Assembly (NCBI RefSeq): GCF_036365525.1
Contig: NC_090416.1
Span: forward strand, 14,728,945 to 14,792,944
Direction: 5' to 3'
Origin: Heterodontus francisci
Taxonomy: Eukaryota
DNA length: 64,000 bases
Below the pieces are notes generated by a model. It saw nothing but the letters and a program-made list of their open reading frames with translations. It ran no database searches and was not told the origin of the DNA. Position 1 is the first letter of the stretch, and every line of letters begins with the position of its first letter. Below, one piece after another: positions 3,001 to 62,304 of this stretch. The translations under genes and the position numbers were made by a program.

Positions 3001-4900
3001 CCCCTCACCTTAACAGACTCATATACCGCACACCCGTCATTGTAACACTCTGATGTACCCCATACTCTTCACTGTAACACTCTGATATAAAACACACCTC
3101 TCACTATAAACCTCTGTTATACCCCACAGCGCTCACTTTAATATTCTGATATACCCCACATTCCTCACTGTTACACTCTGATGTACCCCACATTCCTCAC
3201 TGTAACACTCTGATGTACCCCACACCCCTCACTGTAACACTCTGATATACCCCACACTCCTCACTGTAACACTCTGATATATCCCCACATTCCTCACTGT
3301 AACACTCTGATATATCCCACACCCCTCACTGTAACACTCTGATATACCCCACATTCCTCACTGTAACACTCTGATATATCCCACACCCCTCACTGTAACA
3401 CTCTGATATATCCCACACCCCTCACTGTAACACTCTGATATACCCCACATTCCTCACTGTAACACTCTGATATATCCCACACCCCTGACTGTAACACTCT
3501 GATATACCCCACATTCCTCACAGTAACACTCTGCTATTCCCCACACCCCTCACAGTAACTCTGATATACCCCACACCACTCACAGTAACACTCTGATATA
3601 CCCCACACCCCTCACAGTCACTCTGATATACCCCACACCACTCACTGTAACACACTGATATAACCCACATTCCTCACTGTAACACTCTGATATACCCCAC
3701 ACTCCTCACTGTAACTCTGATATACCCCAAATTCCTCACTGTAACAGTCTGATATACTGTACGCCCCTCACTTTAGCACTTTGATACACCCCACACCCCT
3801 CACAATAACAGTCTGATATACCGCACACCCGTCATTGCAACACTCAATATGCCCCATACTCTTTACTGTAGCACTCTGATATAAAACTCACCTCTGACTA
3901 TAACACTCTGTTATGCCCCACAGCGCTCACTTTAATATTCTGATATCCCCCACACTGTAACATTCCGATATTCCCCACACCCCACACTGTAACATTCTGA
4001 TATTCCCCACACCCCACACTGTAACATTCCGATATTCCCCACACCCCACACTGTAACATTCTGATATTCCCCACACCCCACACTGTAACATTCCGATATT
4101 CCCCACACCCCTCACTGTAACACTCTGATATACCCCACATTCCTCACTGTAACACTCTGATATATCCCACACCCCTCACTGTAACACTCTGATATACCCC
4201 ACATTCCTCACAGTAACACTCTGCTATTCCCCACACTCCTCACAGTAACTCTGATATACCCCACACCACTCACAGTAACACTCTGATATACCCCACACCC
4301 CTCACAGTCACTCTGATATACCCCACACCACTCACTGTAACACACTGATATACCCCACAGTCCTCACTGTAACACTCTGATATACCCACACCCCTCACTG
4401 TATCACTCTGATATTCCCCACACCCCTCACAGTAACTCTGATATACCCCACACTCCTCACTGTAACACTCTGATATACCGCACGCCCCTCACTGTATCAC
4501 TCTGATATTCCCCACACCCCTCACAGTAACTCTGATATACCCCAAATTCCTCACTGTAACAGTCTGATATACTGCACACCCCTCACTGTCACACTCTGAT
4601 ATACCCCTCACCCCTCACTTTAGCACTTTGATATACCCCACACCCCTCACAATAACAGTCTGATATACCGCACACCCGTCATTGTAACACTCAATATGCC
4701 CCATACTCTTCACTGTAGCACTCTGATATAAAACACACCTCTGACTATAACACTCTGTTATGCCCCACAGCGCTCACTTTAATATTCTGATATCCCCCAC
4801 ACTGTAACATTCCGATATTCCCCACACCCCACACTGTAACATTCTGATATTCCCCACATCCCTCACTGTCACACTCAATATGCTCCACACCCCTCACTGT
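1..4900. repeat. Tandem satellite/minisatellite, ~31-33 bp unit (ctcactgtaacactctgatataccccacac(t/a)c)
   Basis: Unit repeats continuously from base 1 to about 4900, with variant higher-order blocks near 2800-3150 and 3500-4900. It explains the repetitive ORFs at 284-4930. Confidence 0.97.
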
Positions 4901-6989: not shown

Positions 6990-7300
6990 ATACGGCACCT
7001 TTCAGGACGGCCCGAAGCCCTTGATAGTCAATGAAATATTTCTGAAGCATAGTCACTGTTGTAATGTAGGGAACACAGCAGCCAATTTGTGCACAGCAAG
7101 ATCCAACAAACAGCAGTGACCAGATAATCAGTTTTTTAGTGATGTTGGTTGAGGGATAAATATTTGCCCCAGGACACCGGGGAGAATTCCCCTCCCCCCC
7201 CACCACGACTCTTCCAATAGTCGTCATGGGATCTTTTGCACCCACCCAAGAGGGCAGACAAGGCCATTGGTTTAATATGTCATCCGAAATACAGCACCTC
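6990..7300 (-). mobile_element. Deu-domain (SacSINE1-like) SINE, running into the 33-bp minisatellite
   Basis: Reverse complement of the same Deu-domain sequence (gcagccaatttgtgcacagcaagatcc). Confidence 0.7.
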
Positions 7301-7995
7301 CGACAGTGCAGCACTCCCTCAGTACTGACCCTCCGACAGTGCAGCACTCCCTCAGTACTGACCCTCCGACAGTTCGGCACTCCCTCAGTACTGACCCTCC
7401 GACAGTGCAGCACTCCCTCAGTACTGACCCTCCGACAGTGCAGCACTCCCTCAGTACTGACCCTCCGACAGTGCAGCACTCCCTCAGTACTGACCCTCTG
7501 ACAGTGCTGCACTCCCTCAGTACTGACCCTCCGACAGTGCTGCACTCCCTCAGTACTGACCCTCCAACAGTGCGGAACTCCCTCAGTACTTTCTCTCTGA
7601 CAGTGCAGCGCTCCCTCAGTCCTGACACTCCTACAGTGCTGCACTCCCTCAGTACTGACCCTCCGACAGTTCGGCACTCCCTCAGTACTGACCCTCCGAC
7701 AGTGCAGCACTCCCTCAGTACTGACCCTCTGACAGTGCTGCACTCCCTCAGTACTGACCCTCTGACAGTGCAGCACTCCCTCAGTACTGACCCTCCGACA
7801 GTGCTGCACTCCCTCAGTACTGACCCTCCGACAGTGCGGAACTCCCTCAGTACTTTCTCTCTGACAGTGCAGCGCTCCCTCAGTCCTGACACTCCTACAG
7901 TGCTGCACTCCCTCAGTACTGACCCTCCGACAGCGCAGTGTTTTCTCAGTACTGACCCTCTGACAGTGCAGCACTCCTTCAGGACTGCCCCTCCG
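7297..7995. repeat. 33-bp minisatellite (ccctccgacagtgcagcactccctcagtactga) amplified from SINE-internal sequence
   Basis: About 21 tandem units. The same 33-mer occurs once in intact SINE copies (e.g. 59669-59699). A stop-free unit divisible by 3 creates the spurious long ORFs on both strands. Confidence 0.93.
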
Positions 7996-8676
7996 GCAGT
8001 GCAATGCTGGTAGTGTTGACGTGCATTATTGGTCCAATCCTTTTTGCCAGTATTTTGTCAATTATATCACCTCACTCCATTTTCCTCTGAGATAACTGCA
8101 TGCTTTGTTATAAACGATGCCCCACTGGCTTGCAGACCATAACCTGGATTAAATACTGATTTGGTTCCTTGGAAAGTATTGCCCATCCCTCACTGCCCAG
8201 TGATGCTGGTGGCGAGCGGTTTGCACCATTTCAGAGGGCAGTTAAGAGTCAACCACATTGCTGTGGGTCTGGAGTCACATGTAGGCCAGACCAGGTAAGG
8301 ACAGCAGATTTCCTTCCCGAAAGGACATTAGTGAACCAGATGGGTTTTTATGACTATCTGGCTGTGGTCCATGTGATTTCCGGGACTAGTTTCGATCACT
8401 TGAGGTGGGATTAGAGATGAATTTTCCCCAGAGTATTCTGTCACTTATTGGCCTGTTTATTATCAGCCCGGTAACACAACCAATACTGTACATTGCCACT
8501 CCTCACCTAAACAGTATTTTCCTTTTGTTTTGTGACAGCGACCCAGCAAGATTCTTTGCATCTCACACACCATCCTGACTTGGAACTATATCGGCCGTTC
8601 CTTCACTGTCGCTGGGTCAAAATTCTGGAACTCCCTCCCTAACAGCACTGTGGGTGTACCTGCAGTGGTTCAAGAA

Positions 8677-17914: not shown

Positions 17915-18885
17915 CAAATGTACCCAGAGTACACCGAACCCATATAACAGCTGGACTGTACCCAAAGTATACCAAACCCATATAACATCTGGACTGTACC
18001 CAGAGTATACCGAACCCCTATAACAGCTGGACTGTACCCAGAGTATACCAAACCCATATAACACCTGGATTGTACCCAGAGTATACCGAACCCCTATAAC
18101 ACCTGGACTGTACCCAGAGTATACCGAACCCATATAACACCTGGATTGTACCCAGATTGTACCCAGAGCATTCGCCAGAGCTGGCGGGCAGCCATAAAGA
18201 CAGGGCTAAATTGTGGCGAGTCGAAGAGACTTAGTAGTTGGCAGGAAAAAAGACAGAGGCGCAAGGGGAGAGCCAACTGTGCAACAGCCCCAACAAACAA
18301 ATTTCTCTGCAGCACCTGTGGAAGAGCCTGTCACTCCAGAATTGGCCTTTATAGCCACTCCAGGCGCTGCTTCACAAACCACTGACCACCTCCAGGCGCG
18401 TATCCATTGTCTCTCGAGATAAGGAGGCCCAAAAGAATACCAAACCCATATAACACCTGGACTCTACCCAGAGTATACCAAATCCGTATAACACCTGGAC
18501 TGTACCCAGAGTATACCGAACCCCTATAACAGCTGGACTGTACCCAGAGTATACCGAACCATATAACACCTGGATTGTACCCAGAGTATACCAAACCCAT
18601 ATAACACCTGGATTGTACCCAGAGTATACCAAACCCATATAACACCTGGACTGTACCCAGAGTATACCGAACCCATATAACACCTGGATTGTACCCAGAG
18701 TATACCAAACCCATATAACACCTGGATTGTACCCAGAGTATACCAAACCCATATAACACCTGGACTGTACCCAGAGTATACCGAACCCCTATAACACCTG
18801 GACTGTACCCAGAGTATACCAAACCCATATAACACCTGGACTCTACCCAGAGTATACTGAACCCATATAACACCTGGACAGTACT
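17915..18885. repeat. 38-bp minisatellite (tgtacccagagtataccaaacccatataacacctggac), interrupted at ~18165-18435
   Basis: Direct tandem repeats lie on both sides of a unique insert. Confidence 0.93.
18165..18435 (+). mobile_element. RTE-clade LINE 3' end inserted in the minisatellite
   Basis: ORF 18146-18385 ends WRAAIKTG...FLCSTCGRACHSRIGLYSHSRRC, resembling the C-terminal Zn-finger-like end of RTE ORFs, followed by a short 3' UTR. Confidence 0.75.
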
Positions 18886-19019
18886 CACATTTAACAGAAT
18901 ATTTCTATCAACCATACATTACTCACCTACCAAATCCTCCCCCAGCTGCATTTACCTCTCCCGCTAAACCAAATCTCCACCTCCTCCTCCTCAGGTTCTC
19001 TGCCAGTACTTCAGCCTCT

Positions 19020-25781: not shown

Positions 25782-26035
25782 GGCTCTGATTTTATTTCCT
25801 GGTTGTTGGAACTTTAGCTCCCGGAGCAAGTCCAGGGACATACCTGGACAGGCGGCAACCCCAAGTCGATGCGGTGCCCCTTTAAAAACTCACCACAGTG
25901 GGAATTCTCCCGTCTGACCTGGATGGGGAACTCAGGTCACAAGGAGGTCAAAGGGCAGCTCTGACAGCGATACGCCAATCAGAGCGGTCAAGCAGACAAT
26001 TACATTTCCAGCCAGCTCCCAATCCAGACACTCAC

Positions 26036-26180
26036 CGATGTAATCGAAGCAGCCAGGAGCCAGGCGTTCCGGGAGGTGAGAGGCAAACAGGAAGCAGGTG
26101 AGGAAAGCAAATATCAGGTGGCGGTAGTGCATGGGGACGGCGTCATTGTGGCTGCAGTCTTCACCCCAGCATAACAAGAG
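26036..26180 (-). CDS. PAQR6: PAQR6 coding exon 6
   Basis: ctctccacag|LLLCWGEDCSHNDAVPMHYRHLIFAFLTCFLFASHLPERLAPGCFDYIG|gtgag; PERxxPGxFD motif; 145 nt. Confidence 0.94.
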
Positions 26181-26595
26181 CTGTGGAGAGAGGGAAAAAG
26201 GGAGAGGGCTGAACCACTCTTAGTTTCTAACTCTGCTGTGCTCTCTCGCAGGAGTAACTCATGGATTCTGACACTACCTGTCCGCCTCAAAGGTCATAAA
26301 TCTTGCCCCCGTGTTTCCCCCCACCTACGAAACCTCACCTGCCTTTGTCAATTCATCCCCCAATTGTGTCAGTCTCCTCCGATTATAAATTCCTCTGACC
26401 ATTTTTATCATTGGGAAAACCTATGTAAACATGTCACGCTGCAATTACACCCTCCCCGCCAGGGCTGGTGCTGTTGTTGCTCGGTTTTGCCGGCATTGCA
26501 GAGAAAGTGCAGCGTTCCAGCCAACTCTGCCTCCCTGCTTGCTACTTTGCCCTGTCACCCGCAGTGTGCTGTACATGCACAGGAGCCGATGCTGA

Positions 26596-26596
<1 letters not shown>

Positions 26597-26670
<74 letters not shown>
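26597..26670. repeat. (CA)n microsatellite
   Basis: Pure CA run of about 74 bp in PAQR6 intron 5. Confidence 0.98.
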
Positions 26671-26673
<3 letters not shown>

Positions 26674-26715
26674 AGCAAGCATCTTTCTCCATTAGCCAGT
26701 CAGTTGTTCCCTTAC

Positions 26716-26812
26716 CCTGTAGAAGAGTGGAATGTTGTCAAACAGGAAGGGGTAGCCAAAGGCAGTGATCCGCAGTGTTTTACTCAATTTAGGCTGTTCA
26801 ATCTCTAGGAAC
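26716..26812 (-). CDS. PAQR6: PAQR6 coding exon 5
   Basis: gccag|(R)FLEIEQPKLSKTLRITAFGYPFLFDNIPLFYR|gtaag; 97 nt; absent from the ORF track. Confidence 0.93.
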
Positions 26813-26956
26813 CTGGCAACAAAAACAAAAAAACAGCGAGAAAGACTTTAATAAGGGAGCTTGTGGGGTCATCACTCTCTGCGTCAGACGTAGCTCCTCA
26901 TTGGGGCAACCTCCTAAAAATAAGAGGTTGAAAAAAGTGAACTGGCTGAATCCAGT

Positions 26957-27900
26957 TACAGAATCACAGAATGTTTAAGGCACAGAAAGAGGTCACTCGG
27001 CCCATCGTGTCTGTGCTGGCCGAAAAATGATCCACCTATTCTAATCCCAACTTCCAGCATTTGGTCTGTAGCCCTGCAGATTACGGCACTTGAGGGGCAT
27101 ATCCAGACCCTTTCAGGCAGTAAGTTCCAGACTCCCACCACCCTCTGGGTGAAAATGTTTTCCTCATCTCCCCCCTAATCTTTCTAACAATCACTTTAAA
27201 CCTATGCCCCCTCGTCACTGACCTCTCTGCTAATGTAAATAGACCCTTCACCTCCACTCTATCCCGGCCCCTCAAAATTTTGTACATTTCAAATCAAATC
27301 TCCCCTCAGCCTTCTCTGTTCCAAGGAGAACAACCCCAGCCTATCCAATCTTTCCTCATAGCTGCATTTTTCCAGTCCTGGCAACATCCTCGTAAATCCC
27401 CCTTCCCTCACGAGCGCAATTACATCCTTTCTGTAATGAGGTGACCAGAACTGCACACAGTACTCACGTTGTGGCCTAACCAATGAGTTATACAGTTCCA
27501 GCATAACCTCCCTGCTCTTATATTTGACACTTCGGCTAATAAAGGAAAGGATTCCATCTGCCTCCTTAACCACCTTATCGACCTGTCCTGCTACCTTCAG
27601 GGATCTGTGGACATTCACTCCAATGTCCCTCACTTCCTCTACACTTCTCAGTATTTTCCCATTAATCGTGTATTCCTTTGCCTTGTTTGACCTCCCCAAA
27701 TGCATCACCTCACACTTCTCCGGGTTGAATTCCATTTGCCACTTTTCTGCCCATTTGACCAGACCATCAAGATCTTCCTGCAGCCTACAGCTATCCTCCT
27801 CACTGTCTACCACACAGCCAATCTTTGGTGTCGTCTGCAAACTTCTTGATCATGCCCCCTACGTTTATGTCCAAATTGTTAATGTATACCACAAAAAAAA
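26957..27900 (-). mobile_element. CR1 LINE 3' fragment
   Basis: ORFs 27289-27840 (KWQMEFNPEKCEVMHLG...LRGDLI) and 27081-27287; 3' tail acagaatc. Confidence 0.9.
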
Positions 27901-28388
27901 AAAGAGCCCTGCGGGACGCCGTTGGAAAGAACCGTCCAGTTGTGAAAACAGCCGTCAACAATTCCCCTTGTCCCTGAAGGATACGGGAACGCCAACCCAG
28001 GTGACTGAGTGGAACACCAGTTGCAGGGGAAAGTCCATAAAGTGTAACTAAATATTCCAACAGACACAAACTGATCTACATACATTCTCTGAGGTGTGAA
28101 AGTACAAACGATTAAGTGACAGGGGGACACGACAGATGGGGATGAGGGAGAGTAGGGAACATGCTGGGGTTAAGTGGCTTTAACTCATGGCCCACGGGAA
28201 TAGTCGGAAATGTGACTTGGCTGAGGTGTCTCCTGGGCCCCAGGGCCTTTATATCCTGTGTAGGAATGTGAACGTGAACACGTATTTCCGAGAATAAAGT
28301 TTCCGACAAACACACCGCTGACACCAAAAGAACGTTCGATAAACTCAAGTCTGGCCTGCCCCAGCATCACCACGGTAACCGGGCCTAC

Positions 28389-28515
28389 CTGGAGTAACAG
28401 GAGAGAGTTGTGCAAACCACAGTGTTGAGGAAAGCCACGTGGATGAAGTAACAATGTAGAATGCTGTTAATCCAGCAGTCAGGCATAACGTAGGCCCTGT
28501 ATGTGACTGCACATC
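28389..28515 (-). CDS. PAQR6: PAQR6 coding exon 4
   Basis: ttgcag|(G)CAVTYRAYVMPDCWINSILHCYFIHVAFLNTVVCTTLSCYSR|gtagg; 127 nt. Confidence 0.93.
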
Positions 28516-29427
28516 CTGCAACAGAGAAAGGATGTTGGGATATAGCAAAAATCATTGGGGATGCAAAAATCCCCCACAATTTTGAAATGAAATGCTTAAT
28601 GTGTTAAACGCGATCCCGAAGCACAGGCTGTTGGAGCCCCATCCTTCCTGCTCTGTGTATTGGCCTCAGTACCACGATTAAATTAATTTTATTCCCCTGG
28701 TTTCAGACAGTGCAGAAGTAACATCTATGCCTTGTGGATGTGTCTGATTCTCTGTGAGGGAGTTGAAATACAAGTGGCTTTCTTTCCCAATTGTTCCTTT
28801 GGCTTAACTGCAATTTAACAAGCCCTATCTGCCTAAAAAGCATTCCTGTCAGGGTGATGTCGTGGAAAACAAGGAGAGCTTGTATGCTGCGAAATTAATT
28901 CGGCACTGTGCTCAATAACAGGCCTGTGAATCAGGCCTTTATCCTCGCAGACAATGCTTCTGTCTTGCTCTCTCACTCCCAGCCAGGCTTGTTTGACTAA
29001 CAGGAACATCTGGGAGGGGCGTTCATCCCCCCCCAACCACTGTTTATAACACCACAAACTGCCTGGTCTCAATGTCCCGGAGATCGTACTGGTCCCGCTC
29101 GATTACCAACACGAGGTGTGACGAGAGTCAGATAGAGAGAGAGAGAGAGAGAGAACGCTGGGGACTGTCAGGGAACAGCCTACTCCTTGTTGTAAGCTTG
29201 TCGGACAACGTCTCGGTTTTTAAAATTCTCATCCTCGTGCCCAAATCCCTCCCTCAGTCCCTCCCCCCTCCCGGTAACCTCCTCTAGCCTTGCAACCCTC
29301 CAAGATGTCTGTGCTCTGCCAATTCCAGCCTCTTGCGCACCCCCCCCCACCGCGATTCCCATCGCTCCACCATTGGGGGCCGTGCCTTCAGCTGCCCTGA
29401 GCTCTGAGCCCTGGGATTCTCACGTAC

Positions 29428-29633
29428 CCAAGCTGTAGAGGCTGAGAACCCCATAGTCGAAGAAGTAACAGACGTGCCGGACATGGGCGGACATGGTACT
29501 AAAGGTGTGGGCGCAGCTGGAGATGAGAGGGTAGAGGCAGATGAACAGCATGTAGACAAATAGCGGCCATGAATATGCTTCATTGTAAAAGTCCACAGTG
29601 TGCGAGAAGACGAGGAACTTCCACAGAAAGTAC
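29428..29633 (-). CDS. PAQR6: PAQR6 coding exon 3
   Basis: ctgcag|(W)YFLWKFLVFSHTVDFYNEAYSWPLFVYMLFICLYPLISSCAHTFSTMSAHVRHVCYFFDYGVLSLYSLG|gtacg; SxxxH and DY motifs; 206 nt. Confidence 0.95.
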
Positions 29634-30147
29634 CTGCAGGAAAGAAGAAAAAAGGTTGAGAGCCGGGGGAGTAGATAAGTGAGACGACCGCCAACCATCG
29701 AGCTCCTCGGAGTAGGCGGGCGTGGCACTTAACAACCATCCCGAGACATGCGAATATTGGCACTCGCTCCGCTCTGGTCCGGTCTGCCAGGTGGGGTCCA
29801 ATCTCGGGTCACGTTCCACGGAACTCACAGCAAGCGCCCGCCGGACCAATCCTGGGTGGGGTGTCGGGTTGCCCATTTCAACGGGGTGGCGTTCGGGCAT
29901 TGGAACCGGCCTCAGCGCCCAGCGCCAGTTGGAATCATGCCACCGGGTTATTTCCTCGACTGCTGCCCGCGGGCCCCTACCGGAAACCCCACCCCCCTCC
30001 CCCGCTCACGTGCGGCATAAACACCAGCACGGAGCAGATGGGCCGAATGGCTTCTCTCTGTGTGCCGGAGATACTGCGCAAGAGGGAACTTACATCTGTA
30101 ACATGGTGAGCCAGCGGACTGCAGCCCCACTTAGACCAAATACATAC

Positions 30148-48254: not shown

Positions 48255-48297
48255 ATGAGCTTCGTTGGTGTCTGCGCTTTGTCCCTTCTCATCCAGG
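48255..48297 (+). CDS. VJ-C1 receptor gene A, exon 1 (signal peptide)
   Basis: ATG...MSFVGVCALSLLIQ, then G|gtgag; 43 nt, phase 1, typical Ig/TCR-like split leader; paralogous to 60351-60393. Confidence 0.85.
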
Positions 48298-49162: not shown

Positions 49163-49501
49163 TTGTTGTCTCTCAGTCCTTCTTGTCCCAGTCTCCGCCG
49201 ATTCAAACAGTCCTTGTGGGAAGCCGTGTTCAACTGAATTGCTACACCACCAGGTTAGTAGCTAGCTATGTCTTCTGGTACAGACAGCAGCACCGGAGGG
49301 ACATGCAGCTCCTTTACACAGTGGGCAAAAACTACCCTGCAGATGGAAGGTTTTCCGGTGAGGTTGATGATAATTCGGGTAATTATGCTCTGGTGATTTC
49401 AAATGTACAGAGAAATGATTCTGGGATGTATTACTGTGCAAGCCGCAATTACCAGAACATGGCCCGAATATTTGGAAATGGCTCCACGCTGGTGGTTACA
49501 G
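49163..49501 (+). CDS. Gene A exon 2: germline-joined VJ-type Ig domain
   Basis: ttcag|..VVSQSFLSQSP..VQLNC..WYRQ..LLY..GRFSG..LVISNVQRNDSGMYYCA-SRNYQNMARI-FGNGSTLVVT, then G|gtaaat. All V-set hallmarks and the J FGxG motif are in one exon. Confidence 0.93.
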
Positions 49502-49604
49502 GTAAATCTTCACGAATATTTCATTCAGTTGGACATTAACATATCAGTTAAAATGTGTCTTTTAAAATTTTTATTCCGGGTTCCGTTTTATTTTCCCACT
49601 TTAG

Positions 49605-49910
49605 AGGGTCGCCCGGCCGTGTTTCTCTTAATTCCGCCGCCGGCTGAAATTTCCTCCATGGAAAGGGTCCCATTGATGTGTTTGGTAAGAGGCCTGTCTC
49701 CCCATTCCCTTCCCATCCTCTGGAATGTTTCCGGAGTGATTAGCGAGGGACAGACCGATTCCGGGGCAATAGACGAGGACGGGACATACAGTGTCAGGAG
49801 TCACATCAGCGTCTCGGCGGAAACGTGGAGCAGCGGCGTTGTCTGTATTTGCACTGTTCAAATCAACTCTACAGAGAATCATATCAGTGAAAGTGTCTCA
49901 TCTCAGAGAG
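49605..49910 (+). CDS. Gene A exon 3: C1-type Ig domain
   Basis: ttag|(E)GRPAVFLLIPPPAEI..PLMCLVRGLSP..ILW..DGTYSVRSHISVSAETWSSGVVCICTV..SVSSQR, then G|gtaac. PxVFL, CLVxG and DGTYS-S-W-C are C1 motifs. Confidence 0.92.
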
Positions 49911-50599
49911 GTAACTATTAACAGTGACCCTTTACTAATTTATTTAATGCTGATGTGAGGCTGATTTTATAACTGTAAAACTTTGTACACTCCGAACATC
50001 TGTCTTTCCACGTGTCCATACATAATGATCTCATCATCGACCTATCGCATATCAATATTCAGTGTTTATCTCCCCTAATGTTCAAGTCTATCTGTTTTCC
50101 CCACCCCAGAGAGTTGTGGGTGCTCAGACATTGAGTATATTCAGGACAGAGATTGATAGATTATTGGACACAAAGGGAATTAAGGAATGTGGGGATTCGA
50201 CGGGATAATGGAGTTGAGGCAGAAGATTAAGCTTGATCTGATTCAAAGGGGCAGCACCCTCGAGGGGCCGAATGGCCTACTCTTGTTCCCATTTTTTGAG
50301 TTCTAATGTCCAGCTGGGCCACACTTTTTCATGGTTGGAGGTCAGTGTCTGTCTGATTGGTCTTTTTGTAAAGTTGGAAGATGTGATTATATTTCCAGTC
50401 CGCCACTTTCTCTGAGCATGTTTGTATATAATTATCTAGTAGCTTAAAGGTTCGGCACAACATCGTGGGCCGAAGGGCCTGTACTGTGCTGTACTGTTCT
50501 ATGTTCTATGTTCTATTAATCTGTCTGTCTGTCTACTTATTATTGACAAAATTTCTGTCTGTCCTAGTTAAACAATGTGGTATAAGATATCTGCTTTGT

Positions 50600-50601
<2 letters not shown>

Positions 50602-50675
<74 letters not shown>

Positions 50676-51030
50676 GTCTAGCCATTTCTGTCCTGGTTAA
50701 AAAGAGCAGCATAAGATACATGCTTTATTTATACATGTGTGGATCTATCTCTCTACTCTATCTCTGGATCGGTCTCTGTAGCTATCGCTCCATCTGTCTC
50801 TATTTATCTATCCATCTCTCTATCTGTCTCTGTATCTATCTCTCTTTCCAACTCTATTTGTCTGCCTCTATATCTATCTCTCTATCCATCTCTGCACAAT
50901 CTATCCATTTATCTATCTCTATATTCATCCATGTTTCTAACTCTGTACCTATCTATTTAATTCTCTCTCTCTATACATCTATCGATCCATCTCTATATAC
51001 TGATCTATCTATCCCTCGGTCTCTCTCCTA
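50602..51030. repeat. (TC)n/(TATC)n microsatellite and degenerate extension
   Basis: Lies in intron 3 of gene A. A counterpart at ~63765-63945 lies in the matching intron of gene B. Confidence 0.9.
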
Positions 51031-51177
51031 GTTAAACAGTCTGCTGCATTTAAGGATGGTGGAAGATGCAAAACCAATTTCCGACTTGTGTGTGAAATTA
51101 CACATCAGTTTTGCCAAATTTCTTCAGTTGTTTAATTATTTTTCATAAACTTCTTTAACGTCAGTTTGTTTTTGCAG

Positions 51178-51297
51178 ACTCTCCGCTGCACACCTCCTGC
51201 GCTTTACCGATTTACGGGAGTTTGTCGGCGGCGGCGTTTCTCCTTCTCGGGATGGTTGTGTTCACCGCGGGAAAAAGCTGCAGGAAGCGGCAGTCAG
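51178..51297 (+). CDS. Gene A exon 4: stalk plus transmembrane segment
   Basis: tttgcag|(D)SPLHTSCALPIYGSLSAAAFLLLGMVVFTAGKSCRKRQS, then G|gtacc. Hydrophobic run followed by a basic stop-transfer; phase 1-1. Confidence 0.85.
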
Positions 51298-51443
51298 GTA
51301 CCGATTGTCGGGAGGCGCTGCAACTCCGCGACGCTCTCAATCCATCCATTTATTACTGTGTTATTTGCTCTTTACACGTTAGCGGACTGGTTCAGTGTGA
51401 ACTGTGGACATTGAGACTCAGTTTAAGTTTCTCTTTCTATCAG

Positions 51444-51502
51444 GCAACATGAACAGAGATGAGGAACTGCCGAATTCCAGACCACGTGCACAAGAAAAGG
51501 AG
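51444..51502 (+). CDS. Gene A exon 5: cytoplasmic
   Basis: ctttctatcag|(G)NMNRDEELPNSRPRAQEKE|gtaaat; 59 nt, phase 1-0. Confidence 0.75.
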
Positions 51503-51584
51503 GTAAATATGAATGAAATTGTTACGATTACCTTTCACTGATTTTTAATATAATTTTAACATTCATAATTATTGTTATATGAGT

Positions 51585-54500
51585 CAAAGAACAAAGAAAA
51601 TTACAGCACAGGAACAGGCCCTTCGGCCCTCCAAGCCTACGCCGATCCAAATCCTCTATCTAAACCTGTCGCCTATTTTCTAAGGTTCTGTATCTCTTTA
51701 CTTCCTGCCCATTCATGTATCTGTCTAGATACATCTTAAAAGACGCCATCGTGCCCGTGTCTACCACCTCCGCTGGCAACGCGTTCCAGGCACCGACCAC
51801 CCTCTGCGTAAAGAACTTTCCACGTATATCCCCCACTAAACTTTTCCCCTTTCACTTTGAACTCATGTCCCCTTGTAATTGAATCCCCCACTCTGGGAAA
51901 AAGCTTCTTGCTATCCACCCTGTCTATACCTCTCATGATTTTGTACACCTCAATCAGGTCCCCCCTCAACCTCCGTCTTTCTAATGAAAATAATCCTAAT
52001 CTACGCAACCTCTCTTCATAGCTAGCGCCCTCCATACCAGGCAACATCCTGGTGAACCTCCTCTGCACCCTCTCCAAAGCATCCACATCCTTTTGGTAAT
52101 GTGGCGACCAGAACTGCACGCAGTATTCCAAATGTGGCCGAACCAAAGTCCTATACAACTGTAACATGACCTGCCAACTCTTGTACTCAATACCCCGTCC
52201 GATGAAGGAAAGCATGCCGTATGCCTTCTTGACCACTCTATTGACCTGCGTTGCCACCTTCAGGGATCAATGGACCTGAACACCCAAATCTCTCTGTACA
52301 TCAATTTTCCCCAGGACTTTTCCATTTACTGTATAGTTCACTCTTGAATTGGATCTTCCAAAATGCATCACCTCGCATTTGCCCTGATTGAACTCCATCT
52401 GCCATTTCTCTGCCCACCTCTCCAGTCTATCTATATTCTGCTGTATTCTCTGACAGTCCCCTTCACTATCTGCTACTCCACCAATCTTAGTGTCGTCTGC
52501 ATACTTGCTAATCTGACCTTCTATACTTTCCTCCAAATCATTTATGTATATCACAAACAACAGTGGTCCCAGCACGGATCCCTGTGGAACACCACTGGTC
52601 ACACGTCTCCATTTTGAGAAACTCCCTTCCACTGCTACTCTCTGTCTCCTGTTGCCCAGCCAGTTCTTTATCCATCTAGCTAGTACACCTTGGACCCCAT
52701 GCGCCTTCACTTTCTCCATCAGCCTACCATGGGGAACCTTATCAAACGCCTTACTGAAGTCCATGTATACGACATCTACAGCCCTTCCCTCATCAATCAA
52801 CTTTGTCACTCCCTCAAAGAATTCTATTAAGTTGGTAAGACATGACCTTCTATGCACAAAAACATGTTGCATATCACTGATGAGCTCATTTTCTTCCCTT
52901 TGGGAATAGATCCTATCCCTCAGTATCTTCTCCAGCAGTTTCCCTACCACTGACGTCAGGATCACCGGTCTATAATTACCTGGATTATCCCTGCTACCCT
53001 TCTTAAACAAGGGGACAACATTAGCAATTCTCCAGTCCTCCGGGACCTCACCCGTGTTTAAGGATGTTGCAAAGATATCTGTTAAGGCCCCAACTATTTC
53101 CTCTCTCGCTTCCCACAGTAAACTGGGATAGATCCCATCCGGACCTGGGGACTTGTCCACCTTAATGCCTTTTAGAATACCCAACCCTTCCTCCCTCCTT
53201 ATGCCGACTTGACCTAGAGTAATCAAACATCTGTCCCTAACCTCAACATCCGTCATGTCCCTCTCCTCGGTGAACACCGATGCAAAGTACTCGTTTAGAA
53301 TCTCACCCACTTTCCCTGACTCTACGCATAACTTTCCTCCTTTGTCCTTCAGTGGGCCAATCCTTTCTCTGGTTACCCTCTTTCTCCTCATATATGAATA
53401 AAAGGTTTTGGGATTTTCCTTAACCCTGTTTGCTAAAGATATTTCATGACCCCTTTTAGCCCTCTTAATTCCTCGTTTCAGATTGTGCCTACAATCCCAA
53501 TATTCTTTCAAAGCTTCGTCTTTCTTCAGCCGCCTAGACCTTATGTATGCTTCCTTTTTCCTCTTAGCTAGTCTCACAATTTCACCTGTCATCCATGGTT
53601 CCCTAATCTTGCCATTTCTACCCCTCATTTTCACAGGAACATGTCTCTCCTGCACGCTAATCAACTTTCTTTAAAAGCCTCCCACATATCAAATGTGGAT
53701 TTACCTTCAAACAGCTGCTCCCAATCTACATTCCCCAACTCCTGCCGAATTTTGGTATAGTTGGCCTTGCCCCAATTTAGCACTCTTCCTTTAGGACCAC
53801 TCTCGTCTTTGTCCATGAGTATTCTAAAACTTACGGAATTGTGATCACTAGTCCCAAAGTAGTCCCCTACTGAAACGTCAACCACCTGGCCCGGCTCATT
53901 CCCCAATACCAGGTCCAGTATGGCCCCTTCCCGAGTTGGACTATTTACATACTGCTCTGGAAAACCCTCCTGGATGCTCCTTACAAATTCTGCTCCATCT
54001 AGACCTCTAACACTAAGTGAATCCCAGTCAATGTTGGGAAAATTAAAATCTCCTATCACCACCACCCTGTTGCTCCTACAGCTTTCCATAATCTGTTTAC
54101 ATATTTGTACCTCTATCTCACGCTCGCTGTTGGGAGGCCTGTAGTACAGCCCCAACATTGTTACCGCACCCTTCCTATTTCTGAGTTCTGCCCATATTGC
54201 CTCACAGCTCGAGTCCTCCATAGTGCCTTCCTTCAGCACAGCTGTGATATCCTCTTTGACCAGTAATGCAACTCCTCAACCCCTTTTACCTCCCTCTCTA
54301 TCCCGCCTGAAGCATCGATATCCTGGGATATTTAGTTGCCAATCATGCCCTTCCCTTAACCAAGTCTCAGTAATAGCAATAACATCATACTCCCAGGTAC
54401 TAATCCAAGCCCTAAGTTCATCTGCCTTACCTACTACACTTCTTGCATTAAAACAAATACACCTCAGACCACCAGTCCCTTTGCTTTCATCATCTGCTCC

Positions 54501-54890
54501 CTGCCTACTCTTTCCCTTAGTCACGCTGACTTCATTATCTAGTTCCTTACAGGCTTTAGTTACTACATCCTTACTCTCCACTGACCTCATTTGGTTCCCA
54601 TCCCCCTGCCACATTAGTTTAAATCCTCCCCAACAGCGTTAGCAAAAGCACCCCCAAGGACATTGGTTCCAGTCCGGCCCAGGTGTAGACCGTCCAATTT
54701 GTAATAGTCCCACCTCCCCCAGAACTGGTCCCAATGTCCCAAAAATCTGAACCCCTCCCTCCTGCACCATCTCTCAAGCCACGCATTCATCCTGACTATT
54801 CTTTCATTTCTAGTCTGACTATCACGTGGCACTGGGAGCAATCCTGAGATTACTACCTCTGAGGTCCTACTTTTTAACTTGGCTCCTAGT
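51585..54890 (-). mobile_element. Relatively young CR1 LINE (ORF1 esterase C-terminus plus nearly full ORF2) in the last intron of gene A
   Basis: 54614-54841 SGNH-esterase-like (MNAWLERWC...DGLHL); 53661-54614 APE (NARS, ITETW, GDFN, SDH); 52267-53664 RT (YADD); 51736-52257 C-terminus; few disruptions. Confidence 0.95.
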
Positions 54891-55224
54891 CGCGAAACTT
54901 CGCATACAAGGGGGGCAGAACCTTAAAATTAGAGCCAGGCTGTTCTAGGGGTGATGTCAGGAAGCATTTCTTCACACAAAGGGGAGTGGGAATCTGGAAC
55001 TCTCTCCCAAAAATGTGTTGAGGCTGGGGGTCAATTGGACAATGTCATAACTGAGAGTGATAGATTCTTTGGAGGTAAGGGGATTAAGAGTTACAGAACC
55101 AGGGCGGGTAGATGGAGTTAAGATTTAATTGAATGCCGGAACAGACTGGAGGGGCTGACTGGCCTCCTCCTGTTCCTCTGATGATGATCTGGGTTACGGT
55201 AATGGTTTCTGTTTTCCCTCACAG

Positions 55225-55269
55225 ACACTTTACGCTCGCCTGGCGGTTAACGCGGATCCCACACTCTGA
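55225..55269 (+). CDS. Gene A exon 6: terminal cytoplasmic exon with ITIM/ITSM-type motif
   Basis: tttctgttttccctcacag|ACA CTT TAC GCT CGC CTG... = TLYARLAVNADPTL*. Phase 0 matches exon 5, and the six exons sum to 912 nt (303 aa). Confidence 0.72.
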   Translation, partial: TLYARLAVNADPTL

Positions 55270-55605
55270 TGGGGAAAGGAAGCTCTCACACTCTGCTTCC
55301 GGGATATGACGTATTGTAGAAAGTTTCCTTTGTTTGGCCGGAGAGTCTTTCAGTCCAACTGGCGGCAATTTCAGCCAAATCTGGGCGTAATTTTCCGATT
55401 GCACCTAAAACGGAATCTGTGAATTCCCTCTGAATATCCGCTATTCTAACGATGATATGTCGCCTGCAGTTTCAGTTCAGTCTCGACATGTTTCCACTTT
55501 CTTGGATTGGTAGTTTTTAATTGTATTGGACATCTTTATACAGCATGTGAGTGGGATATCGTTCAAACAATCTTTACAATGTATCAGTGTCCGAGTTACA
55601 ATTAT

Positions 55606-55611
55606 AATAAA
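55606..55611 (+). terminator. Candidate polyadenylation signal of gene A
   Basis: AATAAA about 340 nt after the stop, followed by GT-rich sequence. Confidence 0.5.
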
Positions 55612-57669
55612 AGAGATTTGTAAATGAATGATAGGTTTGTGATTCCAGTTGTTTAATGGTTCAGTCGAGATTCGCTCAGGATATCTCTCAGACCAATTTA
55701 CAAAGACCTTTAGAGAGCACATGTGTGTGGGTTAAAAATAGACAGAAGGACTGACAGGAGATTTCAGACACTGACTCGGGATTTAAGCTGCATTAATGTT
55801 CAAGCTGCAGTGTTAGTGAAGCCGAGCTTTCTCTGATTGTGTCCTGGGAGTGAACACTGTTACATTTACTCTTCAAACACAATATTTTAAATCAACCTGC
55901 TCTTTGATATTGCAGTCCAGTGATTTCGGCAGTAAAATTGTGTTGAGTTTCACCTCCTGTTAGAATCATAGAATCACAGACACAGCACAGAGGGAGGCCA
56001 TTCGGCCCCTTACCCATATGCTGGTGTTTAAAGAGCTGTGCAGTTTACTCTGAAACCCTAGTGATCTCCACACATCCTGAAAATTAGTCCCCTTCTAGTA
56101 CACGTCCAAGTAAAGCTAGTGTCTAATATTTCTGAAAACAGACTCCATCCACTGTGACTGAAAACAGTTTGCTGGCGATGTAAATAATCACAAACGTTAA
56201 CACAATTCGCTCTTCAGATTAGAAAATCAGTCAACCGTGTGAGTTAGATTCAATGGTTCACTGAGATGGGGTGATATGTTTCGGGTCCACCTTCAATTTG
56301 ATATGCATTAAAAAGCTGGGATTGAGACCATTGGTGTGATGAGTACTGGATAATTGAGTTGGTTATTAAACTCTGATCAAATCGGCAACCTCTTGTGATT
56401 CATGTCCCGAGCGGATAGAAAACATTCCCAAATTCACAACGGTTTATTCTGCTGTAAAATACAGATAATGTTAAGAAGTTTTGGAAACACTTGTTAGATG
56501 ATGCAGATGGAAAAGGTCATTCTGCTCAACATGGCTCATTCACCCAGACAGGTTCAGTCCTCCTCGCCCCTCAGGACAGTGAACTGTTTCTGAAATGACT
56601 CCAGGGGAGTTAACACACTCCGCCCAACCCAGAGGATCATTCCCAGTGCTGATCACTTTCTGTGTCATGAACCTCCTGACATCAGTCCTCATTCTTCCTA
56701 GTCATAGTTTGAACAGCTAATTCTGCTGGCAACAGGTACATAGGAACAGGAGGAGGCCATTCGGCCCCTCGAGTTTGTTCCCTATTCAATCAGATCATGG
56801 CTGATCTGTCTGTTAACTCCATCTCCCTGCCTTGGTTCCTTATCCCTTAATCCCCTTACCCAACAAAAAATGTCCATTTCAGCACCGAAATTACCAATTG
56901 ACCCCCTCCCAGCCTCAACAGCTTTCTTGGGAGAGAGTTCCCGATTTCCACTCACATTTGCGTGAAGAAGTGCTTCCGAACATCGACTCTGAACTGACTC
57001 TAATTTTAAGGTGTTTCCCCTTTGTTCTGGACTCCCCACCACCAGATGACAAAGTTTATCTCTTTCATATCATTTAGTCAAGTAAAACAACCCAATTCGC
57101 CCAACCCTTAATCTATTCTCATGGGAATACAAGCCTAGCCTGTGCAAAATGCAACCCTTCCGTCTGCAGTGCAGTTTGGTTTGCATTAGTCTTTGCCGTT
57201 TAGCGCATCTACTCCCACATGCTCAACAGTCAGTGAATTTACTCCAAACTGTAAATCACCAATAGTAACTCATTCTGTCAACGCACTGTTACTCTGTTCT
57301 GAACCAGCTCTTAGGCCTAAATATCTGCCCGCGTGTTTGGGATACTTCTGGTCTCCAATTTAGCCAGACTACAAATCAGTTTCGGCCTGGTGGAGCATTA
57401 TGTGCAAATCGGGACTTCTGGCCTAACTGGGAGTACAGGGGATGGATGATGGGTAAACAGGACTTGTTGCGAGATGGGACACAGGACAACAAAGTTTACA
57501 ACGCTAATTATTCTCCCTTAGGGATACCGGGACACAAGAACCAAATTTATCCCACACGACGGTACCTCCACCTGGGCTCCATTGGGCGCCTGAATTGATT
57601 GTCCAGTGTGACTTTCATTTGAACATGGAAAGGTATTTGGGACGTCACCGGAAGGAAGTTGTGCTCCCG

Positions 57670-57780
57670 CTGCTTCTACACCTCAGCTGCAAGGTGTGAA
57701 AAAGAGCAGCTCCTGGTGGCGGAGAAATGCCGTCAGACACACCCTCTTACTACATGTTGCTACTTGGGTCCTACTTGGTG
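57670..57780 (-). pseudogene. Possible decayed TM exon of an inverted third VJ-C1 paralogue
   Basis: rc GTGTGTCTGACGGCATTTCTCC...TTCAC...AGCTG...GAAGCAGC resembles gene A TM GTTTGTCGGCGGCGGCGTTTCTCC...TTCAC...AGCTGCAGGAAGCGGC. It lies in the expected order downstream of the pseudo-C1. Confidence 0.4.
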
Positions 57781-58469
57781 AACTGAACAAACCTAATTTA
57801 CATTCAAGTGTCAAGCTATATGAAATTGAATGATGAATCTGCTTCGAGATGAATTGACTGGAAGTAATTAATGAATCCTTGGATTGTCTGAGTGATGCAA
57901 TGAGTTGATTGCCGTTTATAACGAAATATTCTAGCACGTTAATGACGGGGCTTGTGGAGTATAGCCGGTTAACACACACCTACACTGTTTCCTGATACAG
58001 CATGCTTTTTTCAAAACAATATTCAGATATAATGTTTGATAAATCAGCTACCTAAAACATTGCTGTAAGGTATCGTAGTGAGTTATGGTGAGAGATGACC
58101 TTATTTTGCTAGAATCAGTCCTGTTGGATGATTCCGGATATCACAAAATGCGGATTAATGGACACAATTTGCTGCAGCTCCAGAAATTGTCGATCCCGGT
58201 TTAGAGGTTTTAACCGTCAGGAAAAATTGTACAACTGAGGCTTCTTTCTCCAGAATAAAGAAGGTTGAGGGGAGACCTGATAGAGGTCTTTACAATTATC
58301 CTCGTGTGGAGGATACAGACCAACAAGGAGCAGTTGGGGCTGAATGTCCTGTTTCTGTGCTGTAAATTCAACGTAATTGCAACTATTGAAGGGCTTGCAG
58401 TCAAAGGGACTGTCAGAGGGACTCAGCCATGTCTGATTTTCTCAATAGTATTTCCCCGACATGCTATAC

Positions 58470-58665
58470 ACACATTTGTGCTGGTGAATCTGAGTTGAAC
58501 CACAGACAGCGCCGCTGGTCCAAGTTTCCATCGAGATACTGTTACACTGTCGGTTCCGCCTGGGTCTATTGTACCGGAAATCAGTTCGTCTCTCAGTAAC
58601 TCGCTCGGAAATATCCCCAAAATAGGAATACAGTTCGAGGAAACACCAGTGACTAATCTCAATAA
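58470..58665 (-). pseudogene. Frameshifted C1-exon relic of an inverted third VJ-C1 paralogue
   Basis: Minus-strand frames give RLVTGVSSNCIPILG (cf. CLVRGLSPNSLPIRW), ISERVTERRTD (cf. VSGRVTEEETD), SGTIDPGGTDSV (cf. SGTIDPDGTYSI) and SISMETWTSGAVC (cf. SVSAETWSSGVVC). Confidence 0.85.
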
Positions 58666-60147
58666 AGATCAAATATACTTTAATTAACATCAAAGTTCAG
58701 GAACATAGCGACAAGAGGAGGTCATTCACCCCCTGCAGGTGCAGATTTCCGCTCCCCTTTGGGTGACATCACCCCTGAACAGCCTGGCTGTAATGTAACT
58801 AACAAACTGTCCATTCGCAACAATTATATTGAACCTGAATACACAGATTCCTTTGCTGTATATATTACATGCTTAGAGTGCAAAGGAATGATTCTTCCCC
58901 CATTCACTCCCATTACAAGAAACTCCAAAACACATGCATTTTCAAAATTCATTATTCTGAATGCTACTGGGAAAATATCAGTTAATTCACAATGTGTATC
59001 ATTCCAGAGGACGAAACTCTTCCCCACAAATCATTATCCGGAAGTAGAAATGATTGCAATTTACAAAGTTTACAAAATACCAATGGGTTAAACCTCTTTA
59101 TTGTTTCATCTGCCAATTATAATCTGAGCAATATTACTTCCATCTTTATCAAAACTTAAGGGAATGTGTTGTAAGAGCTGGAATGTAATCGAGATGGGAA
59201 TTCTGTCTGTCTCGCCAGAGGAGCTGGGAAGGGGCTTGGAATACAGGAATCCTGAGGCCGAGCGTGGACATCAGAACAGGAGCGCCATCAGAATCGCACC
59301 CAGGGCTGATAAATGATGATGAACCGGCGGTGACCTTTGATCTGCGGTTAATAACACTTGGGAGTAAAACGCGGGGAATGAGATAAGAAAGAACTCGCAT
59401 TTCAGTAGCGCCTTTCACAGCCGCAGAACGTCCCTGAGCGCTACACCATACACTTTTGAAGTGTGGTCACTGCTGTAATGCAGGAACTGCGGCAGCCAGG
59501 TTTTACACAGCAAGATCCAACAAATAGAAATGTGATAATGATTAGGGCACTTCTTTTACTGATGTTGGTTGAGAGATAAATATAAATAGGGAACCTTGCA
59601 ATAATGTCTGTGGGAGCCCGAGAGGTCAGACCGGCCATCGGTTTAACGCCTCATCCCGAAAGACGGCACCTCCGACATTGCAGCACTCCCTCAGTACTGG
59701 CACTGAAAGTGTCCTGGATTTTTGTGCTCAAGTCTCTGGATTGGGACGTGAACCTCTGATGCTTTGTCTCAGACCCCGAGAGCGCCACCCACTGGGCCAC
59801 AGTGTGTGAGACAGGGAGGAGCCCGACACAAGAGACTGGCGGGATAAAGATACTGGGTGACAAAGTTACTGAAAAAATCACATATTATCCCACCTTTCTT
59901 AAATCTGATATATTTTTATTGGAATAAATAAGGGTGTCTCCATTAATGTGTTCTGGGTGAATAAAACACAACACTCGGAATGAGGGGCATTTCCCCGTGC
60001 CCAGGTAAATGATATAAAGGAGTATAGTGTGTTGAATTCAGTACTGTAGACCTGCCCCTTGTCTACAGTTTAAACAGCCTGGACTGCACCCGGCCTTTCA
60101 TGCGTGTTGAACACGATCTGTGACGTATAGACCTTTGCAGGCAGATC

Positions 60148-60186
60148 TGTGCGTGGGCGCTTAACCTGTCAACAGGAAACCCACAG
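60148..60186 (+). promoter_or_regulatory. Conserved promoter block of gene B
   Basis: TGTGCGTG followed by AACAGGAAACCCACAG (60171-60186), identical to the gene A 16-mer. Confidence 0.65.
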
Positions 60187-60350
60187 CGCGAATTTACACC
60201 GCGCTGCATTTTCCAGCCTGCTATTTTTAAACGCACCACCTAATTTGCACAAATGTCTATTTTCACATGTCTTTGGAGCCGGGCCCAGCACAGAGACACC
60301 TGAGCAAACAGTCAGTGCAAATCTCACAGCAACCGCCCCGTTAGCAGAGG

Positions 60351-60393
60351 ATGAGCTTCGGAATTCCCTGTGTGCTGTTCCATCTTTTCCCAG
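60351..60393 (+). CDS. VJ-C1 receptor gene B, exon 1 (signal peptide)
   Basis: ATGAGCTTCG...MSFGIPCVLFHLFP, then G|gtttg; 43 nt, the same length, start and phase as gene A exon 1. Confidence 0.8.
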
Positions 60394-61050
60394 GTTTGTC
60401 CTCTTCACTTCTCATTCATGGCGGAATTCCAGCGTAAGATGACTGAGGTAGTCAGCAAAGTAGAAGGTTGCTCCCCTACCTGTATTTTATACTATTAATG
60501 TCGTGTTGAAGGGCTGCATTATCTCAGGTTAGTCATGTTAATGACACCAAGTGTCAACCTTCTCCAATCTTTCCTCAGTGATGTTAAACCGAGGCCTCGT
60601 CTGCCCCTCTCAGGTGGATGTTAAAGATCCCACGGCCACTACTGGAAGAAGAGCGAGGGCAGGGGTGGGATGTGGGGGGCGGGGGAGAGGAGCTCTTCTC
60701 GGTGTCCTGGGGTCAATATTTATCCCTCAACCGACATCACTTATATACATGATCCGGTCATTATCACATTGCTGTTTGTGGGATCATGCTGTGTGCAATT
60801 TTGTCTGTGGTGTTTCCCACATTGCAATGTGACTACACTTCAAAGATGATTTCAATGGCTGTAAAGTATCTCTGTCTCTTCCTCGTGTTATTGCCTCAAG
60901 TTTAACCTCAGCATTTGACTCAATTATGTTTGCTGATCATTAATGACACGTTGGTCCATTTTACAGTTTACTGTTGTAGCCGTTTCCTCATATGAAACAG
61001 TATTTATTTCCAACATAAGAGACCCTTTTGTGATCAGTTAGTTCTCTCAG

Positions 61051-61386
61051 TTATTGTCTCTCAGGCAGTATCCCAGACTCCGGACTTTCAGACTGTCTCA
61101 CATGGAAGTATCTTTACAGTGCATTGTCAGCCGGGTTGGTTAGCAGGAGGAGCGGTTGACTGGTATAAACAGCTGCACCGGGAACATTTAAAACTGGTTT
61201 ACACCGTGACAAAACACGGCCGTCCAGCCGGAAGATTTTCCGGGGAAGTTAACGATGAATCGACTCTTTATTCTCTGATTATTCGGGATGTGCAGGCAAA
61301 TGATTCGGGCTTCTATTGCTGTGCCGCTAAGGAATTTAGCGGGCAGCCCTTGATGTTCGGAAACGCCTCGAAATTGCTCATTACAG
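61051..61386 (+). CDS. Gene B exon 2: germline-joined VJ-type Ig domain
   Basis: ctctcag|..IVSQAVSQTPDFQTVSHGSIFTVHC..WYKQ..GRFSGEV..LIIRDVQANDSGFYCCA-AKEFSGQPLM-FGNASKLLIT, then G|gtaag. Confidence 0.92.
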
Positions 61387-61476
61387 GTAAGGATTACGAG
61401 TTTTTGACTCATTTCATCTTAAATAAGCAGGAATTGATGTCGAATGGTGATCACATCTTAATTCCCACCTCGGCAG

Positions 61477-61779
61477 GGTCTCCAATCATGTTTCTCTTAA
61501 CTCCACCGCCGGCTGAAATTTCCTCCATGCAAAGGGTCCCATTGATGTGTTTGGTAAGAGGCCTGTCTCCCAATTCCCTTCCCATCCGCTGGAATGTTTC
61601 CGGACGGGTTACCGAGGAAGAGACCGATTCCGGGACAATAGACCCGGACGGGACATACAGTATCAGGAGTCACATCAGCGTCTCGGCGGAAACTTGGAGC
61701 AGCGGCGTTGTCTGTACTTGTACTGTTCAAATCAACTCTACAGAGAATCTTATCAGTGAAAGTGTCTCATCTCAGAGAG
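61477..61779 (+). CDS. Gene B exon 3: C1-type Ig domain (downstream exons expected beyond the window)
   Basis: cggcag|(G)SPIMFLLTPPPAEISSMQRVPLMCLVRG...VVCTCTV...SVSSQR, then G|gtaac; 84/101 aa identical to gene A C1 by hand count. Confidence 0.92.
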
Positions 61780-62304
61780 GTAACTACTAACAGTGACCCT
61801 TTACTAATGTATTTAATGCTGATGTGAGGCTTAGTTGTTAGCAATATCACTTCGTAAGTTAAAATTCTCCCGATTTCTGTGTGTCTCTGTAAATTATCTC
61901 ATCATTTCCCTCTCCCTCCTATGGCTCATTACTGCGGTGTTTAACTTTCTGAATTTTTAAGTCTAGCTGTATCGTTGGGACGTCCATGTATGGCGGGGAA
62001 TTAAGCACCTTGACTGGTCGGAAATTAAAATTGTAAAATAAAACTTCAATTTCCAGTTAACCACTTTCTCCCTCCATGCCTATGTGTTGTTACCTATATT
62101 ACATCGAATTTCCAGCACTCAAATAGACCATTCGGCCCACTGGTCTGTGCTGATGTTTATGCCCCACATATACCTGCTCTCATTCCCTCTTCACCTCATC
62201 CTATCAACAGATCCTTCCAATCTTTTCTCCTTCATGTGTTTATCCAGATTCCCCTTAAATGCATCTATGTTATTTACCTCCGCCAGTCCCTGTGGTAGCG
62301 AATT

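Follow-up and report, generated by a model that had tools for sequence, protein, structure and literature searches.

A 64,000-nucleotide stretch of the horn shark (Heterodontus francisci) genome, C46:14728945-14792944 (hereafter the window), holds genes A and B, the first members of a receptor gene cluster carried by contig C46. A and B have near-identical C1 domains and strongly divergent V domains, and judging from sequence this contrast is likely explained by gene conversion of C1 rather than by diversification of the V loops. We propose that A and B are non-rearranging VJ-C1-TM (transmembrane) receptor genes of two V lineages predating the shark-ray split, and that C1 and the segment from TM to the first cytoplasmic exon (CY1) were likely homogenized by exon-limited gene conversion shortly before a three-gene unit was amplified in tandem. 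Combined with an inhibitory A, a B product without the immunoreceptor tyrosine-based inhibitory motif (ITIM), and selection on the loops of young copies, this is an account that we hold as a whole with good confidence. The argument is carried by direct observations of exon structure, splicing, synonymous divergence, two islands of identity, and conflicting trees. Below, X denotes A-type genes (A is X1), Y denotes B-type genes (B is Y1), and Z a third, more distant type.

Both genes lie on the + strand and consist of a leader exon, a VJ-type V exon, a C1 exon, a TM exon, and two cytoplasmic exons (CY1 and CY2), and both matched the V-set and C1-set domains of Pfam. Splice joints, among them a V-C1 joint of gene A's type, were read from spliced contigs of three runs of one sample; these are not labeled as RNA and are only guessed to be so, and their depth was not taken as expression level. 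Positions are those of the window unless a C46 coordinate is given.

48255..48297, + strand: leader exon of gene A (X1), with a phase-1 donor; agrees with the N-terminus of NCBI model P0001
49163..49501, + strand: V exon of gene A, single-exon VJ-type with an FGNG J-like motif; Pfam V-set, 1e-16
49605..49910, + strand: C1 exon of gene A; Pfam C1-set; exon joints in contigs
49619..49962, + strand: island 1 in gene A, made up of C1 from nucleotide (nt) 13 onward and the first 52 nt of the following intron; 93-96% identity with B
51178..51297, + strand: TM exon of gene A, with a juxtamembrane Cys and an uncharged helix; island 2 begins here
51444..51502, + strand: CY1 exon of gene A, cytoplasmic, with an intact GT donor
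55225..55269, + strand: last exon (CY2) of gene A, with the ITIM-like TLYARL, then stop
60351..60393, + strand: leader exon of gene B (Y1); agrees with NCBI model P0088
61051..61386, + strand: V exon of gene B, VJ-type, Y lineage; a contig with 0 differences joins V to C1
61477..61779, + strand: C1 exon of gene B, A-like; Pfam C1-set
61488..61831, + strand: island 1 in gene B
C46:14793114-14793965, just beyond the window end: TM, CY1, and CY2 of gene B, with the CY1 donor GG at C46:14793439-40

Silent divergence between A and B differs sharply from exon to exon. The synonymous rate (dS, by the Nei-Gojobori method) was 1.46 in the leader and 1.03 in V, as against 0.089 in C1, 0.11 in TM, 0 in CY1, and 0.43 in CY2. 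Likewise, the proportion of synonymous differences (pS) was 0.56 in V (confidence interval, CI, 0.43-0.69) and 0.084 in C1 (CI 0.03-0.15), with a Fisher p of 3e-10 for the two exons. A sequence-only reading of this DNA had proposed that the loops had diversified, that C1 had been converted, or both, and had named a much lower dS in C1 as the sign of conversion. The values for C1 and V reject uniform dS and support conversion of C1. For the other half of that proposal, a test for dN/dS above 1 in the A/B loops failed because of saturation, which in the loops is as far advanced at silent as at replacement sites (CDR3, the third complementarity-determining region, has pS 0.91 and pN 0.68; V overall has dN/dS of about 0.45). 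Loop differences between A and B are therefore uninformative on selection, and the two V lineages are of great age, as the trees below indicate.

The identity figures of that reading were reproduced, with 84/101 identical residues in C1 and about 45% identity in V (51/111 in a global alignment; 45.3% over 106 residues by tblastn). As claimed, CDR3 has 0/10 identical residues after a shared Ala, and differences are concentrated in the loops, where 5/27 residues are identical against 46/84 in the frameworks (Fisher p 0.0016; CDR1 1/8, CDR2 3/8, CDR3 1/11). This loop enrichment would also fit a recent duplication of A and B in which strong positive selection split the V loops while C1 was constrained, as would a loop omega (dN/dS) above 1 among A-type paralogues. 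We consider such a history barely credible: it is refuted by unequal dS, since silent divergence in V and leader is 11-16 times that in C1; most A/B introns are near-unalignable; both V lineages occur in one ray; and monophyly of the V domains is rejected by the trees described below.

Conversion limited to exons matches the distribution of identity along the two genes, which is high in only two islands, C1 and TM-CY1. Island 1 excludes the first 12 nt of C1 and runs past the C1 donor for about the 50 bp that had been estimated, with 50/52 nt identical before identity falls to 58%. Island 2 covers TM, a 146-nt intron, CY1, and about 60 nt beyond (88-95%). Intron similarity before and between the islands is 51-58% for A against B and 83-100% for X-X pairs. 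The V-C1 introns (103 nt in A, 90 nt in B) are dissimilar, as had been noted (57% alike), but not unrelated, a z of 4.1 against shuffles pointing to weak homology. In C1, B is about as near to nine X copies (mean dS 0.131) as these copies are to one another (0.128, 36 pairs). Slow silent evolution of C1 was considered separately and rejected, C1 dS among X copies being not below their V dS of 0.092.

B could alternatively be a one-off chimera, in which a single unequal crossover placed a Y-type leader and V onto an entire A-type 3′ half. The C1, TM, and CY1 of B are all A-like, the catshark gene P0090 likewise combines a B-type V with an A-like C1, and crossover products are known in the cluster: X4 has an A-type V-C1 followed by B-type introns, and Y4 has an A-type intron after C1, mixtures which indicate that crossovers were resolved in island 1. 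A single crossover in B is disfavored because it would bring the introns too, whereas the inter-island intron has stayed B-type, at 53-58% to A, and divergence is greater in CY2 and the 3′ untranslated region (dS 0.43; 69%). We therefore regard the one-off chimera as unlikely; an ancient crossover in B, followed by later conversion, is possible.

Trees across species date the V lineages and set C1 apart from V. In a V tree of 43 rows, A fell into a group of X-type genes from basking shark, smooth-hound, sawshark, and rays (99/97). The partner of B, within the Y-type genes, was a catshark gene (97/87). With 24 rows, a single clade of horn-shark X and Y V domains was rejected by the approximately unbiased (AU) test (p 6e-6). 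The best C1 tree, also of 24 rows, contains a horn-shark X+Y clade (77/60), and a C1 clade of all bearers of a Y-type V was rejected (p 0.022). Both V lineages are present in rays, and one Mobula species has both; on this sequence evidence, the A and B V lineages predate the divergence of sharks and rays. A-type and B-type genes are identical at 46/107 V and 43/96 C1 residues in Mobula, and at 49/111 and 47/101 in the basking shark Cetorhinus. C1 homogenization is thus not general in the family, and these two species serve as non-homogenized controls: their C1 domains are as different as their V domains, indicating that C1 drifts no less than V where conversion is absent. For the horn shark it is fair to speak, as the earlier reading did, of a germline repertoire with a shared constant domain, with the provisos that only 1/6 B-type copies is intact and that the shared C1 is not family-wide.

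Genes A and B also differ in their tails. The donor after CY1 is GG in B and GT in 8/9 X copies; the exception is the broken X7. In the contigs, B V is spliced to C1 with no mismatch (depth 129), and in 2/3 runs B TM runs straight into the last exon of the same gene, skipping 687 nt with GT..AG ends. No joint of CY1 to a B-type CY2 is listed in the contigs of this sample's three runs, and at a contig end in one run CY1 continues in frame into a last exon of A type. Translation of the skipped form stops ten residues past the TM exon, and its ITIM is out of frame. Because of the GG donor and the TM-to-CY2 splicing, the product of B is predicted to lack the ITIM; the missing GT donor and the skipped exon are new observations. 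Such a product could act as a partner that is non-inhibitory or a decoy and that differs in its V tip. For A-type chains we infer, from sequence only, an inhibitory receptor whose V loops would bind ligand, whose chains may dimerize via the invariant juxtamembrane Cys, and whose signaling would pass through TLYARL. A second loss of the tyrosine motif was seen in X7 (C46:15016974-15017786), where CY1 is disrupted and the motif Tyr is changed to Cys.

It is quite possible, if somewhat short of an even chance, that B is a decaying copy whose lost donor marks an early step of pseudogenization and not a functional decoy. Broken frames are found in 5/6 B-type copies, and Y4 is also without a CY1 donor; on the other side, the leader, V, C1, and TM frames of B are open and B is spliced. 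Because decay concerns only the role of B, it is compatible with conversion.

Young A-type copies give a separate view of the loops. We applied our own codon model to nine X copies (X9 was left out; null models had w1 fixed at 1). With shared synonymous rates, omega was 3.4 in the loops versus 0.77 in the frameworks (p 1e-7 against omega 1), with values of 3.8, 4.9, and 3.0 for CDR1, CDR2, and CDR3, respectively. These rates lend moderate support to loop-focused positive selection among young A-type paralogues outside the window, by which their loops likely diversified later than the conversion.

Several results weigh against parts of the conversion and selection account. At the DNA level, the C1 exons of five Y and ten X genes form separate clades (98/94), so exchange is not sweeping all copies now; because Y C1 is still one clade against X, the last X-Y sweep probably came shortly before unit amplification. 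A C1 clade of B and its catshark counterpart was not rejected (AU p 0.12), so repeated conversion lineage by lineage is not shown. As to the tail of B, NCBI models keep the ITIM in frame (P0088), and the splice data are the contigs of a single sample, only guessed to be RNA. As to selection, giving the loops their own synonymous rate lowers omega to 1.9 (p 0.039), or to 2.2 (p 0.023) without X6 and X7; pairwise counts among X copies yield a loop omega of 1.57 (bootstrap P 0.06); the X framework omega is near 1; recombination can inflate such tests, and the codon model has no recombination; and the loops of seven Z V exons showed no significant selection (p 0.08, 0.74).

The cluster extends over 330 kb (C46:14.778-15.109 Mb) and contains 23 C1 exons, 15 of A/B type and 8 of the more distant Z type (46-49%), in a tandem repeat unit of X, Y, and then Z on the opposite strand. 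Eight of the ten X copies are open through the tyrosine motif (the X7 tail is broken and X9 is frameshifted), and B is the only intact copy among six Y genes. X, Y, and Z alike have an uncharged TM, an invariant juxtamembrane Cys (25/25 aligned rows), and a motif resembling the ITIM consensus, LYARL in A-type and (L/I/T)YASL in Z-type tails. Z genes are found at C46:14797800-14801070 (L031, L032, L021), with 8 further V exons to 15.096 Mb; they combine a V with two extra cysteines near CDR2, LQNG replacing FGxG, a TM, and a tail ending in (T/I/L)YASL. Family-wide, the C1 F strand has an invariant C-x-C pair (25/25 aligned rows), and most X/Y V domains have an N-glycosylation sequon in the J-like FGNGS motif of the G strand.

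The Z chain is a candidate partner chain on sequence grounds. A more far-reaching and rather doubtful idea is a germline two-chain, T cell receptor (TCR)-like repertoire, in which X or Y would pair with Z via C1 and the juxtamembrane Cys, C1/TM conversion would keep the V lineages partner-compatible, and ITIM-skippers such as B would tune the signal. If true, this two-chain repertoire beside rearranging immunoglobulin light-chain (IgL) clusters would offer a living example of what the receptor was like before RAG invasion. Non-rearranging VJ-C1 genes are put forward as candidate relics of the antigen-receptor precursor (PMC12227049, PMC10751288).

In the AlphaFold model of A (mean pLDDT 72.9), V and C1 each form a sandwich and the TM segment a helix; among solved folds, Ig light chains come closest, at 22-27% identity. 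One database protein that is identical to gene A carries the label ‘Ig heavy chain Mem5-like’. Transcription specific to A is weakly shown, by one 87-nt exact V piece and by joints that paralogues could also yield. The V-C1 intron of B (window 61387-61476) has 90 nt in frame and free of stops, and its retention would add 30 residues between V and C1. A CACAGTG heptamer lies in the CDR2 region of X1 (window 49317-49333), with a nonamer-like run close behind at a spacing unlike a recombination signal sequence (RSS), and is probably there by chance; X2 has the same heptamer at the same place.

Rearranging IgL clusters occupy 15.04-16.87 Mb, beginning 260 kb from A and interleaved with the end of the receptor cluster. 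This stretch has about 40 near-identical C exons, many spaced by about 16 kb and one inside the receptor cluster, and the one IgL cluster examined has split V and J with 12-spacer RSS; we take its isotype to be type I/sigma-cart. This proximity, together with the light-chain folds, could suggest that A and B are germline-joined IgL or TCR genes that arose from the rearranging clusters next to them. We judge this derivation very improbable: the fold matches reach only 22-27% identity, the C1 domains of the family from sharks to birds (22 rows) are separate from 8 shark Ig C domains (94/96, in a tree without TCR C), and the TM and ITIM-like tail belong to an architecture also seen in bony vertebrates. 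No heptamer was present at CDR3 in 13/13 X/Y V exons examined.

Other features lie in and around the genes.

51736..54275, - strand: broken open reading frames (ORFs) of a non-LTR (long terminal repeat) retroelement inside the CY1-CY2 intron of A, endonuclease/reverse transcriptase-like by inspection
58502..58633, - strand: C1 remnant between A and B, inverted and frameshifted

The CY1-CY2 intron is 3.7 kb in A versus about 0.43 kb in X2. The inverted C1 remnant between X and Y recurs at C46:14.821, 14.859, and 14.969 Mb, and its presence in several repeat units indicates that it is older than the amplification. The 248 kb upstream of A yielded no family member, and in the 284/327 unmasked upstream ORFs that were scanned, Pfam matches were limited to PAQR-type, ankyrin, and a single weak coiled-coil match. 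These include exons of a PAQR-family (HlyIII domain) gene on the minus strand (window 25935-29728), presumably most like PAQR6, and ankyrin-repeat exons with a 610-codon coiled-coil-like ORF, also on the minus strand (L078:2511-8031, L080:147-332), which we assume to be ANKRD35/UACA-like. Long tandem-repeat arrays with units of about 32, 33, and 38 nt lie at window 1-4900, 7297-8006, and 17919-18887. Linkage of the cluster to the major histocompatibility complex (MHC) was rejected, class I genes being on contig C29 and none on C46 among 64 matches. SELENBP1 lies on C46, 1.6 Mb away, and a lizard homologue is labeled APH-1A; together with the PAQR-family gene in the window, and given the human gene positions (SELENBP1 at 1q21), these suggest that the region corresponds to the human 1q21-23 MHC paralogon.

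NITR, SIRP, KIR, and LILR are paired inhibitory receptor families, and the horn-shark genes share with them a tandem birth-and-death cluster, a variable distal Ig domain, ITIM-bearing and ITIM-less members, and recombinants. They differ in that the proximal domain is a single C1 and that X, Y, and Z have no charged TM residue, so no adaptor-coupled activating form is seen. The mechanisms are already familiar in other immune receptor clusters. The shark cluster shows how a germline repertoire can be put together when V lineages are old, conversion of the stalk is limited to exons, the loops of young copies are under selection, and a single splice-donor change removes the ITIM. According to PMC12227049, UrIg has 3 C1 domains and is secreted and MHC-linked, and UrIg2 has 9-11 C1 domains, lies by IgH/TCRad, and has gene conversion reported among its C exons. 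Both share with the genes here a single-exon, non-rearranging VJ with C1 in elasmobranchs. The genes here differ in having a single C1 and an ITIM-like tail and in lying on a different contig from the MHC class I genes (C29); conversion here is between genes, and in UrIg2 between domains of one gene. Rearranging Ig and TCR genes differ from the present ones, in which VJ is joined and RSS were found only in the neighboring IgL cluster examined.

Homologues of A and B are found in sharks and rays (85 proteins, including one pike protein and two unnamed fragments) and further in lungfish, coelacanth, sturgeon, salmonids, caecilian, turtles, alligators, lizards, frog, and birds, the bird proteins having V-set but not C1-set listed; no mammal is named among the 117 homologue matches. 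The family is probably PRARP, although neither that name nor chicken appears on any of these 117 matches. PRARP1/PRARP2 were reportedly described by Fu et al. (J Immunol, 2019) as a membrane pair with non-rearranging VJ(-C1), an ITIM/ITSM (ITSM being the switch motif), and disulfide-linked dimers, with orthologues said to extend from bony fish to birds and a C1 that is degenerate in birds. PRARP is named in PMC10751288 and PMC11599192. The horn-shark genes make up an expanded, transcribed cluster (by contigs guessed to be RNA) labeled as Ig or TCR chains in databases; no literature description of it was found, though subscription papers and supplements, outside our search, may describe it. They resemble PRARP in the joined, non-rearranging single-exon VJ with a J-like segment (present in X and Y, with LQNG for FGxG in Z) and in the V-C1-TM architecture. 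Two further traits of PRARP are also found here: a cytoplasmic ITIM-like motif (out of frame in the splice form observed for B) and two linked types, here X/Y and Z on opposite strands. In the snapping turtle, two family types lie on one contig. What distinguishes the horn shark from PRARP is a tandem cluster of 23 C1 exons, in which two ancient V lineages stand on a converted C1 and one member skips its ITIM.

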